A stretch of 64,000 bases of DNA from Bacillota bacterium (GTDB lineage: Bacteria; Bacillota; Desulfotomaculia; Desulfotomaculales; VENG01). This document shows positions 4,919 through 59,526 of this stretch, one piece after another. The first letter of the stretch is position 1. Every line of letters starts with the position of its first letter. Position numbers and translations under genes: made by a program. The notes under the pieces were generated by a model. It made no database searches and had not been told where the DNA came from. It saw only the letters and a program-made list of their open reading frames with translations. The stretch is taken from the NCBI GenBank assembly GCA_009711705.1, contig VENG01000008.1:99535-163534 (forward strand). The letters run 5' to 3'.

Positions 4919-6058
4919 GAGATTTTAGGGTCGCTGCTTAAGGGTTAAAGTTCTTTTTTCGACGGGATTAACGGGATGTGCGGGATTAGTGATGGTGCTG
5001 TTTATTATTTGTTTGCTTAAATAGATGCTTATTTTTTATCATAACAGTGCTAGTAATAAAAGAAATTTAATGGAAATATAGGTTATAAAAAATCCTGGAT
5101 AAAGAAATCTAGGGTTACTGCTTAAGGGTCAAATCTTATTAGATAGATTAGTGATAAGTACTATGTACTGTTTGTTTTCCTTAGTTGACCAACTTTTTAC
5201 TATGACAGTGAGTACTTAAAAGAGTTTTAGTTTTTAATATGTTTTTAAAAATCCTGCTATCCTGTAATCCTGTCAGAAAAGAGACCCCAAAGAATTACAT
5301 GCAAATCTTTTAGATCTTAGAAAATAAATCTTGCCTTACAATCACAGTAAATAAAGCTTTACTGACTTACGTATCTTTAAATCCCACTAATCCCGTAAAT
5401 CCCGTCAAAACTCACATGAAACATATACACAAACTAGAATGAAAATTTATTTTCGTAAAAAAAATAGCAAAGATACAAGATTGTCATTCTGAGTGCAGCG
5501 AAGAATCTGAGTATTTATGCGACTTTTAAGATTCTTCATTTCACTTCGTTTCATTCAGAAAATGACATGAATCTGGACTTTTTCAGCAGTCCCGGACGAG
5601 TCCTCTTGCTTCCTTGCTTAAAAGTATTGTTTGGGTCTTGGCTTATGGGTCTTTTTTTCTTTGACAGGATTACAGGATTTGCAGGATGCTTTGGGGTCAT
5701 TGCTTTTGGGTCTTTAAAAGCATTTTTAAATTGTTTGCTTTAGAACTTTGGACTTGTCCAAAGCTCTGTTTAGATGATAAAGGCTTTCGATTGAGTTTTT
5801 ATTTTTTAAAAAATCCTGTTGATCCTGTTAATCCTGTCTAAAAAAATTGTTTGCCTCAAAGCCCCACATGCAAAGCCTTTTATCCCGCTTATCCCATTGA
5901 TCCCGTCAAAACTCACATGAAACATATACACAAACTAGAATGAAAATTTATTTTCGTAAAAAAAATGACCCAAAAGAACTACTTGCAAATCTTTAAATCC
6001 CACTAATCCCATAAATCCCGTCAAAAAACTGACCTCAAAGAACTACATGCAAATTCTT
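4919..6058. repeat. ORF-free intergenic region filled with copies of a ~60-65-nt unit (triple 9-nt sub-repeat WWATCCYRY + GTCAAAA + GACCYCAAAGAAYTACATGCAAAT)
   Basis: Forward triples at 5249..5280, 5379..5410, 5811..5846, 5880..5911 and 5995..6027; reverse triples at 4961..4987 and 5660..5687. No ORF >=60 aa in the supplied track. Confidence 0.85.
5483..5566. repeat. 84-nt imperfect palindromic element
   Basis: GTCATTCTGA..GAAGAATCT (5483..5508) pairs with AGATTCTTC..TCAGAAAATGAC (5529..5566). Confidence 0.7.
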
Positions 6059-7012
6059 TTACACCTTAGCCAAAGCCGCACCGTTAGTGTAATTAAACAG
6101 CCGGCCCTGGTAAGTATCTTTTGCCTCCAGCAACTCCTCAATAGCCTGCCTTAACTTCCACCAGCTCACATCCCAGTTGGAGAAAAGCACCTTTTCCGCC
6201 GGGCCCTTACCCACCAGGCGCTGTACCACTATCTCAGGGTCCAAATACTCGAGGAAAGTAACAACCCTCTGCGCATACTCCTCCAGGGAAATCATGTCAA
6301 ATTCCCCCTTCCGGTACATTTCCCCCAATACAGTGTCCCTTACCACATATAAAGAATGAAACTTTACATAGTCACTGTGCAGGACCGAAATCAGCTTAGC
6401 GCCTTCTACTATATCCTCCCGGCCATCCCCAGGGAGATTGAGAATTAGGTGGGTACAAATTTCAAACCCACGTTGTTTTGTACGCAGTACCGCATCCACA
6501 TATTCTGCCAGGGAATGCCCCCTGTTTATCCTGTGCAGGGTGTGATAATTCACGGTTTGCAGGCCCAGCTCAATATTAATATTCAAATTATGCTCTTGCT
6601 GCAGCCCGTGCAAATAATCCAGGTAGGCATCTGATATGCAATCGGGCCGGGTAGATATGGAAATACCTATTATGTCCGGTTCTTCCGCTGCCGCCTGCAT
6701 GTTTGCTTTAAACTGTTCTAATGGAAGATATGTATTGGTAAATGCCTGGAAGTAAGCGATAAACTTTTGGGCCTTAAATTTCTTTTTAAAGTTGGCCTTA
6801 TTGGTTTGCAGTTGGTCCTTTACGGCCAGGCTGTTGGGCAGGGCATCAAAGCCAGAGCCTTCTTCATCACAAAATATGCATCCGCCCCTGCCCACGGTTC
6901 CGTCCCGGTTAGGGCAGGTTCCGGGCAAATTTACAGGGAGTTTGTAAACTTTACACCCGAATTTTTCTTTCAAATGTTTGGAATATGTTCTGTACCTTTC
7001 TTCAGGCTGCAT
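6059..7012 (-). CDS. radical SAM protein, YhcC/TIGR01212-like
   Basis: CPNRDGTVGRGGCIFCDEEGSG cluster motif near the N-terminus; 317 aa. Confidence 0.75.
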   Translation of the reverse strand: MQPEERYRTYSKHLKEKFGCKVYKLPVNLPGTCPNRDGTVGRGGCIFCDEEGSGFDALPNSLAVKDQLQTNKANFKKKFKAQKFIAYFQAFTNTYLPLEQFKANMQAAAEEPDIIGISISTRPDCISDAYLDYLHGLQQEHNLNINIELGLQTVNYHTLHRINRGHSLAEYVDAVLRTKQRGFEICTHLILNLPGDGREDIVEGAKLISVLHSDYVKFHSLYVVRDTVLGEMYRKGEFDMISLEEYAQRVVTFLEYLDPEIVVQRLVGKGPAEKVLFSNWDVSWWKLRQAIEELLEAKDTYQGRLFNYTNGAALAKV

Positions 7013-22954: not shown

Positions 22955-23122
22955 TTGAAAAGGGAAGAAGAGGCTGCAATGGCATTAAAGAAGTATATTG
23001 AGGAACATCCTGGTGAAAAACTGGCTATTTTTAAACTCTCACATAAATTAGGTTATTCTGTACTGGAGCTGAATGCCGCCCTGCGAAAATTAGCATCTGA
23101 AGGCTGGTTGAAGCAAGGTTAA
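22955..23122 (+). CDS. small winged-helix-like protein (55 aa)
   Basis: Below the track cut-off. SD GGTGGTG + TTG 22955 (or ATG 22979): ...MALKKYIEEHPGEKLAIFKLSHKLGYSVLELNAALRKLASEGWLKQG. Followed by terminator 23133..23160. Confidence 0.35.
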   Translation: MKREEEAAMALKKYIEEHPGEKLAIFKLSHKLGYSVLELNAALRKLASEGWLKQG

Positions 23123-23160
23123 AAGGGAAAGGAATTACCCTCTTGGGGGGGTAATTTTTT

Positions 23161-23257
23161 ATCAGATTTCTAAAACTCCCACTTATATAAGTGGGAGTTT
23201 GCACTTTTTTTCTTCAGGTGGAAGCCCCGATGTTCAGCATTAGCTGAACGAGTTCAC
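23161..23257 (-). repeat. modular hairpin repeat, copy A (modules R+L)
   Basis: Reverse complement matches 40785..40896 except for the absent middle hairpin. Confidence 0.85.
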
Positions 23258-32334: not shown

Positions 32335-32812
32335 TTTAAAAGTAAAGCATTACTTTGGGGTCATAATTATTTTTACGAAAATGCCCGGGATATATGGGAT
32401 TTTTGCATGCGTTCTTACTGTTTTTTGATATAAAAACATCTTAGGTATTCCTTTGGGGTCGTTTTCTGACAGGATTAACAGGATTTGCAGGATTTTTTTT
32501 TGAGCAGGATCATTACTTTGAGAGCGTAGATACTTCATGGTTTTAAAAGAGCACCATTAATTTAAAACAATGACTTATATTTATGAGATAGAATCGAAAT
32601 GAAAGTATTTATTAATAATTCCATTGCAGATAAACTTCATTGCTTATCCTGTTAATCCTGTAAATCCTGTCAAAATGTTTTTCTTTGTCTTTATTTTTTG
32701 ATTTTATCCCTATCCTTAATCCTATACCATGTCTTAATCCCTTTCCTTTTTCTTTTCTTTACGGAAATAGTTTGAAGGAAATAACTGTTTCCCGGTCGAA
32801 AATTTTCTTATT
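32335..32812. repeat. second locus of the triple-9-nt repeat family, between comEA and comEC
   Basis: Reverse triple 32466..32494 and forward triple 32644..32675 match in 24 of 29 positions as inverted repeats. Tail fragments at 32355..32420; degenerate copies at 32700..32745. Confidence 0.8.
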
Positions 32813-39544: not shown

Positions 39545-39772
39545 TATGCATTATAACTATAAAGAAGACTTGGTTCAGGTTGGGTTTTTACCCCATCTGA
39601 ACCTTAGTCGCACTTATTTCGAGCTTACAGCCTGTTAATCCTATTAGTTGGGGACATTCCTGTCCCCAGAGAAATACCCAAGCTTCAGCAGGTGTGTCCC
39701 CTTTCCTTATGCGAGGCCGGGGTCTTACAGGCTGTGCGAAGATAAAAACAGTTCTTAAGCGGGGGAACAAAA
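39545..39772 (+). other. 228-nt structured leader / repeat mosaic upstream of the split permease
   Basis: Hairpin 39572..39603. GGGGACA (39650..39656) can pair with TGTCCCC at 39661..39667 or 39695..39701. ACAGCCTGT 39627..39635 is complementary to ACAGGCTGT 39727..39735. Confidence 0.5.
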
Positions 39773-40784: not shown

Positions 40785-40896
40785 GTGAACTCGTTCAGCT
40801 AAAGCTGAACATCGGGGCTTCGAGTGGGGATTCAACCCCACCTGAAGAAAAAAAGTGCAAACTCCCACTTATAGAAGTGGGAGTCTTAGAAATCAG
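40785..40896 (+). repeat. modular hairpin repeat, copy B (modules L+M+R)
   Basis: L: GTGAACTCGTTCAGCTAAAGCTGAACATCGGGGCTT. M: GTGGGGATTCAACCCCAC. R: AAGTGCAAACTCCCACTTATAGAAGTGGGAGTCTTAGAAATCAG. Starts 2 nt after the permease stop. Confidence 0.85.
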
Positions 40897-40950
40897 CTAA
40901 ATATTACCTCAATTAGTTTTTGCGAAAGGGGGGTAGAACGGGGAGAAAAG

Positions 40951-46813: not shown

Positions 46814-46867
46814 GCAAGTGGGGACGGTTCTTGCTTGCCCGGGCAAGCAAGAACCGTCCCCACTTGC
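46814..46867. terminator. perfect 54-bp palindrome between convergent permease genes
   Basis: GCAAGTGGGGACGGTTCTTGCTTGCCC|GGGCAAGCAAGAACCGTCCCCACTTGC; 27-nt arms, no mismatch. Confidence 0.8.
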
Positions 46868-49671: not shown

Positions 49672-50736
49672 ATGACGGAAACAGTTACCCGTAAACTCCC
49701 TTTTTTAGAAAGATATTTAACTGTATGGATATTCCTAGCCATGGCAGTTGGTGTGGGTGGAGGATATATTTATCCCTCTGTCGCGGAATTCTGGGGTAAA
49801 TTCCAGGTGGGAACCACAAATATACCCATTGCCATTGGTCTCATTATTATGATGTACCCTCCGCTGGCCAAGGTGAAATACGAAGAAATTGGTAAAGCTT
49901 TTAACAATACTAAAGTAATGGGACTTAGCCTTTTTCAAAACTGGATTGTGGGCCCCATCTTGATGTTTATATTGGCTGTGGTTTTTCTTAAGGATTTCCC
50001 TGAATACATGGTGGGTGTGATCCTGATCGGTCTGGCCCGCTGCATTGCCATGGTCATCGTGTGGAATGTACTGGCCAAGGGTGACACAGAATATGCCGCC
50101 GCTTTGGTAGCATTAAACTCCGTTTTTCAGGTACTCCTTTTTTCTGTTTACGCCTACATTTTTATTACCGTGCTTCCACAATGGCTTGGCCTCAAATCCT
50201 TGGAAATAGATATTTCCATGGCGGAAGTGGCCAAAAGTGTATTCATCTACCTGGGCATCCCCTTCATTGCCGGCATTATAACCCGTTTCACGCTCATGCC
50301 GGCCAAAGGTAAGGAGTGGTATGAAAATAAGTTTATTCCCAAAATCAGCCCCCTCACCCTGGTAGCGTTGCTCTTTACCATCGTGGTGATGTTTTCACTA
50401 AAGGGGAGCTATATAGTAGCTTTGCCCATGGATGTATTGAGGATAGCGGTTCCACTAGTAGCCTATTTCCTTATCATGTTCTTCTTCTCATTCTTCATCA
50501 GTAAAAAGGCCGGGGTAAACTACGAGCAGGCCACCACTTTGTCCTTTACTGCCTCCAGCAATAATTTCGAGCTGGCCATTGCAGTGGCTGTGGCGGTATT
50601 CGGCATAAATTCCGGGCAGGCACTGGCCGCGGTTGTCGGTCCCCTTATCGAAGTGCCCATAATGATCGGGCTGGTTAATGTTGCCCTGGGCTTCAAGCGT
50701 AAATATTTCGGTGACCAATTGGCAAACGCTAAATAG
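49672..50736 (+). CDS. acr3: ACR3-family arsenite efflux transporter
   Basis: [17 protein letters not shown]...[18 protein letters not shown]...[11 protein letters not shown]; 354 aa. Confidence 0.85.
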
Positions 50737-50802
50737 TAGCAAAAAATAAGCCGGGAGTGGTCAATTTACTCTCCCGGCATTATAATTACCGGAGTGAAAA
50801 GT

Positions 50803-51165
50803 ATGAAGGAATTTCTTCGTTTCTTAAAAATCATTGCCGATGACACCAGGCTGAAAATAATCGATATGCTTTCTCACCATGATATGTGTGTATGCGAAAT
50901 TATGCACCGGCTGAATATGTCCCAGCCCGCCGTATCTCATCACTTGAGGGTGCTGAAAAAAGAGAAAATAGTTTTAGACGATAAGGACGGCCGCTGGGTT
51001 TTTTACTCCCTGAATAAAGAAGCATTTTTCAATCAAGTGGAACATCTAAACACTGAGTTGTTTAACAGCATGCGGGAGAACCTTCGATGTCGTACCACTA
51101 CACGTGACTACGAGGCATGTAAAAGGATTGAGAATACTTTATGCTCACATAAAACAGCCAGGTGA
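50803..51165 (+). CDS. ArsR/SmtB family metalloregulator
   Basis: IADDTRLKIIDML...MCVCEIMHRLNMSQPAVSHHLRVLKKEKIV. ATG 50803 lies 8 nt after GGAG. Confidence 0.85.
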   Translation: MKEFLRFLKIIADDTRLKIIDMLSHHDMCVCEIMHRLNMSQPAVSHHLRVLKKEKIVLDDKDGRWVFYSLNKEAFFNQVEHLNTELFNSMRENLRCRTTTRDYEACKRIENTLCSHKTAR

Positions 51166-56096: not shown

Positions 56097-57814
56097 ATAT
56101 GGTTAGAACGAGAAAAAACTCGCTGGCATTGATGCCGCTGGGCGGTATTGCGGAAATAGGCAAGAATATGCTGGCTATGGAATGTAATAACGATATTATT
56201 GTAATCGACTCGGGACTAAAATTTCCTACGGAAGAATTGCCCGGTGTCGACTTGGTGATTCCTGACATCGGTTATTTAAAAAATAATCTGCAAAAAATAA
56301 AGGGTATTATTCTTACCCACGGGCATGAAGATCATGTGGGCGCTTTACCATTTGTTTTAAATGAAATTAATGTTCCCGTATACGGCACTTCTTTAACGGT
56401 GGGGATTGCCGGTAGGAAGTTATTGGACCGGGATAGTCGAAGTAAAGGTAAGATTAATGAATTTTCTTTAAATGTTATCACGCCTGCGGATAAACTGAAA
56501 CTAGGATGCTTTAAGATAAATTTCTTCCGAGTTAACCACAGCATTCCCGATGGCGTGGGGCTAGCTATAGAAACCCCTGCCGGGCTGGTTGTCCATTCCG
56601 GGGATTTTAAGATTGATCAAACTCCCATTGACGGTCATGTAATGGAACTGGGGAAGTTGGCCCAGTGGGGGGAGCGGGGAGTTCTCCTTTTTCTTTGCGA
56701 TACCACCAATGCCGACAGAGAAGGATATACCCCTTCTGAAAAAGTGGTGGGTGAAACGCTTCTGCACTATTTTGCGCAGGCTAAACAACGTATAATTGTT
56801 ACTACCTTTGCTTCCAACGTTCACCGTATACAGCAAATTGTTAACGCCGCTGTACTGTTTAACCGCAAGATAGCCCTTGCCGGCCGGAGTATGATTAACG
56901 TGGTTGAGGTCGCTACTGATTTGGGTTATCTACATATCCCTGACCATACCCTTATCGAAATTAATGAGGCCAATAAACTGCCGGGTGAGGATGTTGTAAT
57001 TATTACCACCGGTAGCCAGGGTGAACCAATGGCGGCTTTAACCAAGATGGCTCAACAATCACACCGGCAGGTGGTAATAAAGCCCGGTGATACTGTAATC
57101 ATTTCCGCCAATCCCATTCCAGGGAACCAAAAATTAGTAGCCCGGACCATTGATAACCTTTTCCGTATTGGTGCACAAGTGGTATACAAGGTAGATGGTA
57201 CAGTGCACGTTTCAGGACATGCTGCTCAAGAAGAGATTAAAACTCTGGTTAACATTTTAAAGCCCAAGTATTTTATGCCGTTCCATGGTGAATACAGGCA
57301 TAAAATTAAATTTGCACAGCTGGTTGAGGCGATGGGTATTCCCAAAAGTAATGTTATCTTTGCTGAGTGCGGTGACCGGTGGGAATTTAATAAGCAGCAG
57401 GCCAGTTTAAATGGTAAGGTAACTCACGGGGACATTATGGTCGACGGGTTGGGCGTGGGTGATGTAGGCAATATAGTTCTACATGACCGCCAGAGTCTAT
57501 CCACTGAGGGCATCATTGTGGTGGTAATGGTAATTGATAAAAAATATGGTACGCTTCTTGCCGGACCGGACATTATTTCCAGGGGATTTGTTTATATGCG
57601 GGAAAGCACTGAATTGTTGGATGAAGCTAAAAAACGTATTACCAAAGAGTTGAATGATTTGCCTTCAGCCCGACTTAAAGAATGGTCAACTGTCAAAGGT
57701 ATTATCATAAGGTCATTGTCCTCTTTTCTTTATAAACATATTGGGCGCAGGCCGGTTATTTTACCTGTCATAACGGAGTGCGTTCCCGTCACTGATCACC
57801 CATGGCCTTTATAG
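56093..57814 (+). CDS. rnj: ribonuclease J
   Basis: Beta-CASP metallo-beta-lactamase: ILTHGHEDHVGALP, HVSGHA. The start may be GTG 56093 or ATG 56099. Confidence 0.9.
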   Translation: MNMVRTRKNSLALMPLGGIAEIGKNMLAMECNNDIIVIDSGLKFPTEELPGVDLVIPDIGYLKNNLQKIKGIILTHGHEDHVGALPFVLNEINVPVYGTSLTVGIAGRKLLDRDSRSKGKINEFSLNVITPADKLKLGCFKINFFRVNHSIPDGVGLAIETPAGLVVHSGDFKIDQTPIDGHVMELGKLAQWGERGVLLFLCDTTNADREGYTPSEKVVGETLLHYFAQAKQRIIVTTFASNVHRIQQIVNAAVLFNRKIALAGRSMINVVEVATDLGYLHIPDHTLIEINEANKLPGEDVVIITTGSQGEPMAALTKMAQQSHRQVVIKPGDTVIISANPIPGNQKLVARTIDNLFRIGAQVVYKVDGTVHVSGHAAQEEIKTLVNILKPKYFMPFHGEYRHKIKFAQLVEAMGIPKSNVIFAECGDRWEFNKQQASLNGKVTHGDIMVDGLGVGDVGNIVLHDRQSLSTEGIIVVVMVIDKKYGTLLAGPDIISRGFVYMRESTELLDEAKKRITKELNDLPSARLKEWSTVKGIIIRSLSSFLYKHIGRRPVILPVITECVPVTDHPWPL

Positions 57815-57819
57815 ATTTT

Positions 57820-57974
57820 ATCTGATTTCTAAGACTCCCACTTCTATAAGTGGGAGTTTGCACTTTTTTTCTTCAGGTGGGGTTGAATCCCACCAGTTGG
57901 GGACATTCCTCCGCAGGAGGTGTGTCCCCTTTCCTCTTAAGCCCCGATGTTCAGCTTTAGCTGAACGAGTTCAC
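57820..57974 (-). repeat. modular hairpin repeat, copy D (R+M+X+L, longest)
   Basis: Same modules as copy B in reverse, plus module X (AGTTGGGGACATTCCTCCGCAGGAGGTGTGTCCCCTTTCCT), which is shared with 39646..39707. Confidence 0.85.
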
Positions 57975-58111
57975 TCCCGGGATCTCACTATTCTTCTTTG
58001 ACGGTGCTCCTTTTTTCGAGGAGCGCTTGTTTTTTTAATAACACTTTTCAACTTCAATACATAATATAAGATGAAAGTTGAATTATTCTATTGCTGAAGG
58101 GAGGATCATTT

Positions 58112-58373: not shown

Positions 58374-58590
58374 TCGGAACCACTAACAAAAGAAGTTACC
58401 TCTCAAAAATTACCCCTTTATATAAAGGGGTAATTTTATTTTGGCAAGCAGGGACGGGCAAGTGAGAACCGTCCTAACTTGCCAAACAACTTGGTAAGTT
58501 GGTTTGAGTTGCAGGAATCGACAATTTAATTGAGAATTTATAAATATAAGGATTTTTCGAAGAACTTCTACAAAAGGAGAGTGTCAATCA

Positions 58591-59370: not shown

Positions 59371-59526
59371 ATAAAAAATACCTGTAATGAGGGGCAAGCA
59401 AGAACCGTCCCCACTTGCGGGGTATTTTTTCCAAAAGGATTTTTAGAGAATTTATTGAACTTTTACACTAAGTAGCATGCTGGTCATACCAGCAGCCAAT
59501 TTTCTTCTTGGTAAGGAGGACTATCC

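Follow-up and report, generated by a model that had tools for sequence, protein, structure and literature searches.

The four hairpin-rich repeats present in the analysed window, a stretch of 64,000 nt, are likely to be copies of a non-autonomous IS200/IS605-family element, that is, a palindrome-associated transposable element (PATE). This assignment is carried by features read directly from the DNA, namely the anatomy, the ends, the target motif, one clean empty site, the spread of deletion derivatives and a wide host range, while the responsible enzyme and its action on single-stranded DNA would follow by analogy. The first-pass annotation had likened the repeats to pneumococcal BOX or enterobacterial BIME elements, assembled by mix-and-match from modules named L, M, R and X. 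As a dispersed, modular and hairpin-rich family at gene 3' ends they had been described correctly. The BOX/BIME classification fails. The modules cannot be exchanged like boxes. When the complement of the annotated strand is read, module R is the left end and module L the right end of an IS200/IS605-type element. Module M is a dispensable interior in which deletions and insertions occur, and X is an unrelated hairpin nested in one copy. The likeness to BOX and BIME is one of look only, and superficial. Below, the strand of the annotation is called the reading strand, the opposite one the top strand, and a slash marks a boundary between element and flank.

The window belongs to an uncultured Bacillota MAG and is chromosomal DNA of an ordinary kind. 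The RNase J encoded there matches, at 100% identity, a protein recorded as 'MAG: Firmicutes bacterium' (NCBI), and the next relative is 86% identical; GC content lies at 42-50%, GC skew is positive nearly throughout, and no tRNA genes are present. The genes that flank the copies are housekeeping or regulatory ones, namely ArsP-like permease halves, ArsR, a metallophosphoesterase, RNase J, a methyltransferase and a CRP-family regulator.

All four copies were recovered at the places where they had been annotated, against a chance expectation of 0 (Table 1). Module L has four matches in the window at ≤2 mismatches and module R three at ≤3 mismatches, and neither gave any match in 100 shuffles. 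Over the parts that they have in common, copies B and D show 99-100% identity; A and B are about 94-95% identical, and C reaches 86%. The annotated limits essentially hold, except that the last 'AT' of A and D is part of the flanking target motif and that C stops already at ~51244. The interior had to be corrected as well: M, taken to be absent from A, keeps the base of its stem there and has lost the apex alone, and the M hairpin of D, taken to equal that of B, is one G shorter. Copy D is located between the stop codon of RNase J (57812-57814) and a + strand terminator at 58003-58036, and on the + strand its P3 followed by GCACTTTTTT scores as terminator-like.

Table 1. Copies of the element, their parts and flanking motifs in the window, with the hairpins of module X
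Feature	Position	Strand	Length	Remark
Copy A	23163..23257	- (top strand = window +)	95 nt	Apex of central hairpin deleted
TTTAT target-adjacent motif of copy A	23158..23162	+		Directly 5' of the left end
Copy B	40785..40896	+ (reading strand; top strand = -)	112 nt	Full short form
Copy B, right end = module L	40785-40820			GTGAA (complement of the TEM), then hairpin P1
Copy B, central hairpin P2	40817-40848
Copy B, left-end hairpin P3	40859-40884			Last base of the element is G at 40896
Copy B, flank CTAAA (top strand TTTAG)	40897..40901	+		One-base variant of the ATNAA/TTNAT motif
Copy C	51162..~51244	+ (top strand -)		Right end, variant central hairpin and 5' arm of P3 only
Copy D	57822..57974	- (top strand = window +)	153 nt	Full element plus nested foreign hairpin
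TTTAT target-adjacent motif of copy D	57817..57821	+		Directly 5' of the left end
Module X	57899..57929	+		Hairpin GGGGACATTCCTCCGCAGGAGGTGTGTCCCC, then TTTCC; nested in the interior of copy D, outside the family consensus
X-like hairpin	39650..39701	+		Arms GGGGACATTCCT...AGGTGTGTCCCC, different 28-nt loop
Top-strand termini				TTTAT/C...P3 (left) and P1-GAGTTCAC/ (right)

On the reading strand, the element has a sharp 5' limit at GTGAAC, and on the other side conservation stops after G/ATNAA. The base before GTGAAC is A (T on the top strand, outside the right end) in 96% of 140 distinct flanks, and farther upstream the sequence is random. The far-side flank was read in 80 copies by anchoring on the subfamily-specific last base of the element; the five nucleotides beyond this anchor are ATNAA in 62/80 and ATAAA in 47/80, and randomness sets in from position 6. 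Because N varies among otherwise near-identical copies, ATNAA is flank and not element, and such a conserved motif flanks one side only. No terminal inverted repeats were found, the ends GTGAAC... and ...CAG or ...TTG (reading strand) not being complementary. A search for target duplications likewise returned none, with suffix/prefix matches of 2-10 nt, in several boundary registers, not above those of shuffles. Three copies with flanking direct repeats of 5, 6 and 10 nt are exceptions that the model does not explain.

A classical DDE-transposase MITE, or a BOX-like modular element, might be suggested by the small size, the intergenic position and the modular length variants. However, the lack of terminal inverted repeats and target duplications, the asymmetric ends with a motif on one side only, and a length variation that arises through deletion or insertion of unrelated hairpins, with no tandem middle unit, make such an origin highly improbable. 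Pneumococcal BOX elements also vary in length by modules, form stable hairpins and occur as intergenic copies near genes, but they belong to unrelated hosts and have a different insertion signature, and neither the boxA-(boxB)n-boxC grammar nor complementarity between the end modules is present here. Integron attC sites, group II intron ends and core sites of tyrosine or serine recombinases were dismissed on sequence inspection, as the end motifs do not fit. SINE-like target-primed reverse transcription, considered for the A-rich 3' flank and the few variable flank repeats, became unnecessary once the match to a known pair of transposon motifs (TAM/TEM, see below) had been found.

A clean empty site is provided by the JGI contig L203, which comes from a close relative (metallophosphoesterase 96% identical, flanks 94-99% identical) and is devoid of copy C. 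Its junction reads ...AACAGCCAG/ATAAAT... (CCAG/ATAAA), against ...AACAGCCAG/GTGAACTCG... in the window, and therefore the element starts at the G of GTGAAC and ATAAA pre-existed at the junction. The same site rules out AGTGAAC as a 7-nt insertion target, given that start and the position of ATAAA on the opposite side. Over its whole length, the window arrangement ...CATAAAACAGCCAG/GTGAACTCG...CTCCCACT/TTATCCAAAGGAG corresponds to ...CATAAAACAGCCAG/ATAAATATAGG...(46 nt).../TTATCCAAAGGAG in L203. Copy C ends inside module R, the left end and about 46 nt of native spacer having been lost after insertion.

Other loci were compared in the same way. At the HtpG locus, 22 metagenomic orthologues without the element end in ...ERALG, with GGA-TAA often followed by A (GGATAAA), whereas three alleles with the element end in ...K, with AAG-TGA-AC. 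The pair L061/L040 is compatible with the same reading of filled and empty sites, and at the copy D locus the synteny around RNase J orthologues differs from that of the window. Compared with window positions 50721-51022, L203 has a deletion of the 5' 300 nt of the arsR-family gene; compared with 57780-58032, it carries a 2.3-kb segment (Lactamase_B and PaaX genes) in place of the copy D region, and the RNase J C-termini differ. These differences mark the neighbourhood as a rearrangement hotspot.

On the top strand, the anatomy of the family can be written as TTNAT (mostly TTTAT)/C-(8-12 nt)-RAG-P3...P2 (dispensable)...P1-GAG-TTCAC/. According to a previous study (PMC7290912, Halanaerobium IS605), IS200/IS605 elements in general insert 3' of a specific pentanucleotide, have subterminal hairpins and lack both inverted repeats and duplications. 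ISGst2 of Geobacillus stearothermophilus has the TAM TTTAT and the TEM TTCAC, which differ at positions 3 and 5; in the ISGst family a DNA 'guide' adjoining the left-end hairpin recognises the TAM, and gene-less PATEs mobilised in trans were described in the same work (Meers et al. 2023, doi 10.1101/2023.03.14.532601). The terminus TTCAC and the flank TTTAT of the present family are exactly this TEM/TAM pair. Subterminal hairpins, missing inverted repeats and duplications, gene-less derivatives and a TAM that co-varies with an internal guide base are further points in common. The present repeats depart from ISGst2 and its PATEs in several respects. Most of their hosts are anaerobes of the Desulfitobacteriia, Desulfotomaculia, Halanaerobiia and similar groups. 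The search for a linked tnpA, tnpB or iscB gave none, and one subfamily has a relaxed base in the middle of the TAM. The likeness to ISGst2 is thus one of TAM/TEM and layout.

The putative guide base is the third base before P3 on the top strand. Where it is A, TAM position 3 is T in 44/48 copies and another base in the remaining 4; where it is G, this position is T in 10, C in 8, A in 7 and G in 1 copy (n=26). The association of guide base with T or non-T has a Fisher p of 1.8e-6, but it is a correlation only, the guide base being fixed per subfamily and host effects being possible. The conserved T outside the right end was not predicted by the PATE model, and copy C together with the C-terminal codons described below argues that it is derived from the target.

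IS608 and ISDra2 are the paradigm of IS200/IS605 single-strand 'peel and paste' transposition. They share with the present family the order target, ~12-19 nt, left hairpin and then right hairpin, ~8-10 nt ending in a conserved motif, as well as strand-specific insertion 3' of a 4-5-nt target. They differ in that the target here is TTNAT instead of TTAC or TTGAT, that the left and right hairpins here are unlike each other, and that the replication-strand bias is only weak. The top strand is on the locally G-rich (leading-sequence) strand in 89 copies and not in 62, a weak tendency confounded with gene orientation; its direction is that predicted for insertion into the lagging-strand template, with GC skew as a proxy, and the four copies of the window split 2:2.

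By analogy with IS608 and ISGst2, a Y1 HUH transposase (TnpA) made elsewhere in the genome would bind both subterminal hairpins on single-stranded DNA and cut on the 3' side of TTTAT in the flank (TAM) and of TTCAC at the terminus (TEM). A single-stranded circle would thereby be released and pasted 3' of another TTNAT, leaving no duplication. Motif screens of the window and of ~1 Mb of copy-bearing loci detected neither tnpA nor tnpB, and the ORFs between or beside copies included no full-length element bounded by these ends. An autonomous partner was also sought between distant L...R pairs and beside orphan L modules, where the genes are ordinary metabolic or regulatory ones.

In an alignment of 39 short copies from many genomes, three hairpins are present, P1 (GTTCAGC/GCTGAAC), P2 (the M stem) and P3 (the R stem), with 97.8% of cells paired. 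P2 and P3 are supported by compensatory changes, since nine pairs are altered on both sides, a number that 0/500 shuffles reach, and slid controls collapse. P1 never varies, but it was fixed by the search pattern, so that its invariance is partly a matter of ascertainment. Both end hairpins are subterminal, the distance to the boundary being ~12 nt for P3 on the left and 8 nt for P1 on the right, and they differ from each other. The 170-180-nt form possesses two extra hairpins, whose pairing is maintained between subfamilies by compensatory changes.

One subfamily has GTAAAC, not GTGAAC, at the right end (L047, L052 and L103, also L022, L028 and L120). In 3/3 of its members having P2 (L047, L052 and L103), the P2 loop is AGTTTAC, exactly complementary to the GTAAAC end. 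A general pairing of the 5' GTGAAC end with the P2 loop was considered and set aside, because the GTAAAC/AGTTTAC cases represent a single lineage and may reflect linkage.

Conserved structure raises the question of whether the repeats are primarily a functional RNA, for instance a 3'-UTR stabiliser, terminator or small RNA, with dispersal being secondary. Compensatory changes in three hairpins, extra covarying hairpins in the long form, the terminator-like P3 plus T-run on the top strand of window copies, and copies placed directly after stop codons would be expected of such an RNA. However, the copies have no preferred orientation to co-directional neighbours (42 sense vs 40 antisense), and the counts of G-U and A-C (28 vs 35) show no clear strand asymmetry. 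Presence and absence differ between close relatives, deletion variants without P2 have multiplied, no Rfam match was obtained, and the position at stop codons is accounted for by the target motif, all of which renders a primary RNA function quite improbable. UGA recoding or a SECIS was rejected too, as no frame is conserved beyond the TGA and the copies are found in either orientation. IS200 carries a terminator-like hairpin at its left end. Insertion into the T-tract of terminators was tried as a general rule, and few cases fit, copy A among them.

The location of the copies near stop codons, already reported in the annotation, was borne out in every case. Copy B lies 2 nt after a TAA, copy C itself provides a TGA, copy D ends 7 nt after a TGA, and copy A lies 40 nt past the stop of a 55-aa ORF (22955-23122), beyond its terminator, whose T-tract forms the TTTAT of this copy. 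Across the family, the GTGA of the element itself is the stop codon of the gene in 18/65 sense copies that follow a gene, and in a further 10/65 the stop is ≤3 nt upstream of the element. For instance, the GTGA of copy C provides the TGA stop (51163-51165) of the arsR-family gene 50794-51165, where AGA-TAA became AGG-TGA and the protein end ...HKTAR was left unchanged. All 18 proteins that stop in the element end in K, E or Q (R in copy C), and a FakA-like protein stopping there extends exactly to the end of its Pfam C-terminal profile (216/216).

This position follows from the target, because ATAAA contains TAA and the right end GTGAA turns NA/A-TAA-A into NA/G-TGA-A. Since the change from NAA to NAG is synonymous and the stop comes at once after it, insertions at NAA-TAA-A are silent and persist. 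The location at gene ends is explained by target choice (TTTAT/ATAAA) together with selection, copies accumulating in AT-rich gene-distal DNA, and a role as terminator or mRNA stabiliser is therefore not required. According to crude gene calls, 21 free A/ATAAA sites lie over an in-frame stop vs 490 that are intergenic (4%), and 12-15% of occupied sites lie over a stop, ~3-fold above free sites on the same crude calls. The excess at stop sites fits a better survival of silent insertions.

The family is not confined to the window, a possibility that the annotation had considered. A scan of species-representative genomes with a degenerate 25-base L pattern matched at least 120 stretches in many genomes, where copies occur genome-wide. 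Hosts among the matches listed include several Desulfosporosinus species (many copies per genome), Desulfotruncus arcticus, Thermincola, Dethiobacter, a Halanaerobiales MAG, Clostridiales MAGs and Paenibacillus mesophilus. Genomes rich in copies include those of Desulfosporosinus acididurans M1 and Desulfotruncus arcticus DSM 17038. When the 8-kb loci around the matches were searched with profiles, the number of L modules rose to at least 161 in all. Copies fall into size classes of ~110 nt (L+M+R) and ~170-180 nt (two extra hairpins inside M), and shorter deletion forms are also present, such as a 71-nt form in which L is fused directly to R, with an identical junction at at least three non-orthologous loci, and several minimal forms with L followed directly by GATAAA. 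The shared L-R junction at non-orthologous loci and the minimal forms imply that derivatives retaining both termini have multiplied, which is the behaviour of a mobile element whose ends matter.

The conservation of module L bears on another Y1-related possibility, in which the L hairpin would be a REP-like site of a single-copy domesticated Y1 transposase (RAYT) and the family, like BIMEs, would be kept for host functions. REPs are HUH-Y1 substrates as well, no autonomous IS was found around the copies, and L is invariant across distant Bacillota while the remainder drifts by subfamily, although this invariance is partly an artefact of the search pattern. REP/BIME and REPIN-RAYT systems also resemble the present family as high-copy extragenic hairpins at gene ends that are probably handled by a Y1 HUH enzyme. 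In contrast, a REP consists of one palindrome of 20-40 nt that carries a GTAG/CGTC tag, whereas the present elements measure 70-180 nt, differ between their two ends, combine a TAM in the flank with a TEM at the terminus, and show neither the tag nor inverted doublets, the copies being single and in either orientation. A REP/RAYT-type origin consequently has little probability, and an IS200/IS605-type PATE is the reading we retain.

Viral contigs, phage records and plasmids yielded no copies, save for an isolated P3-like hairpin in plasmids of Clostridium estertheticum. In plasmid pCF005-A (L207:3001-3028) and 5 similar plasmids, this lone hairpin (AACTCCCACTTATAGAAGTGGGAGTCTT) is 93-100% identical to P3 and sits between convergent genes, without the remainder of the element. 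The annotation had not recognised the sequence, and neither strand of L was meaningfully matched in a literature search. At gathering thresholds, Rfam gave nothing across the window, with the IS605-orfB and HEARO omega-RNA motifs included, and in E-value mode the four copies produced chance-level matches only, well under the gathering score of each family. The family is thus uncatalogued, yet of a well-known type.

Several contigs (L026, L043, L070, L091, L096, L116 from the DeMMO5_3 MAG and the Logan contig L121) terminate within the element or at its very edge. Short-read assemblies are therefore interrupted by the repeat, and under-counting in MAGs is to be expected. At L035:4396-4467, a left-end half (3' arm of P3, tail and ATAAA) is joined to its exact reverse complement as a ~70-nt perfect palindrome; centred on the P3 loop, this is a fold-back rearrangement of one element end.

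Other repeats were noticed in passing. Module X had also been annotated at 39646..39707; its two arms do recur there, but the loop differs and the sequence is not a fragment of the main element. One instance of X is nested in copy D, another stands by itself upstream of the permease genes, and a third follows htpG in an unrelated metagenome contig (L170:3360-3418); together they form a second small hairpin family with conserved arms GGGGACATTCCT...AGGTGTGTCCCC, variable loops and TTTCC after the hairpin. X could represent a terminator-like hairpin with mobility. Between convergent genes at 46814-46867 lies a perfect 27+27-nt palindrome (GCAAGTGGGGACGGTTCTTGCTTGCCC plus its complement), and single arms of it recur after two other genes (58456-58482 and 59392-59419); it looks like another REP-like repeat family. 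As well, triple-heptad clusters (ATCCYGT x3, e.g. AATCCCGTAAATCCCGTCAAAA) occur in both orientations at 5265-6060 and 32447-32675, where the heptads at 5381-5465 and 5882-5966 are embedded in 85-nt repeats that are 94% identical.

The interior hairpins (P2 and the extra two) keep their pairing although TnpA should not need them, which leaves room for an omega-RNA-like role, and the element may not be just a passive remnant reduced to its ends. The interior, together with P1 and the TTCAC end, may encode a top-strand omega-RNA scaffold, and TAM and TEM may be tuned for protein-silent insertion at stops; we put this forward as a speculation that is rather unlikely to hold. The guide of such a scaffold would be the DNA beyond the right end, so that each copy would direct a TnpB or IscB nuclease produced elsewhere to cleave the empty site of that copy, amounting to trans-acting homing of a gene-less element. 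Under tuned TAM and TEM, NAA-TAA-A stop codons would serve as a safe harbour for insertion.

The assignment gives a name and a mechanism to a repeat that clutters intergenic regions and breaks assemblies in many anaerobic Bacillota, and the ends together with the target motif constitute a search model for annotation. It further suggests that an ISGst-like TnpA is active in these lineages or was so recently. Most interesting is that TAA stop codons are occupied in a protein-silent manner, from which a rule can be drawn: TTTAT/TTCAC ends mirror TAA/TGA on the other strand, so that an IS200/IS605 element can settle on a stop codon and leave the protein unaltered. If an omega-RNA is indeed encoded in the interior, guide scaffolds for TnpB or IscB would have a compact natural source in this family.
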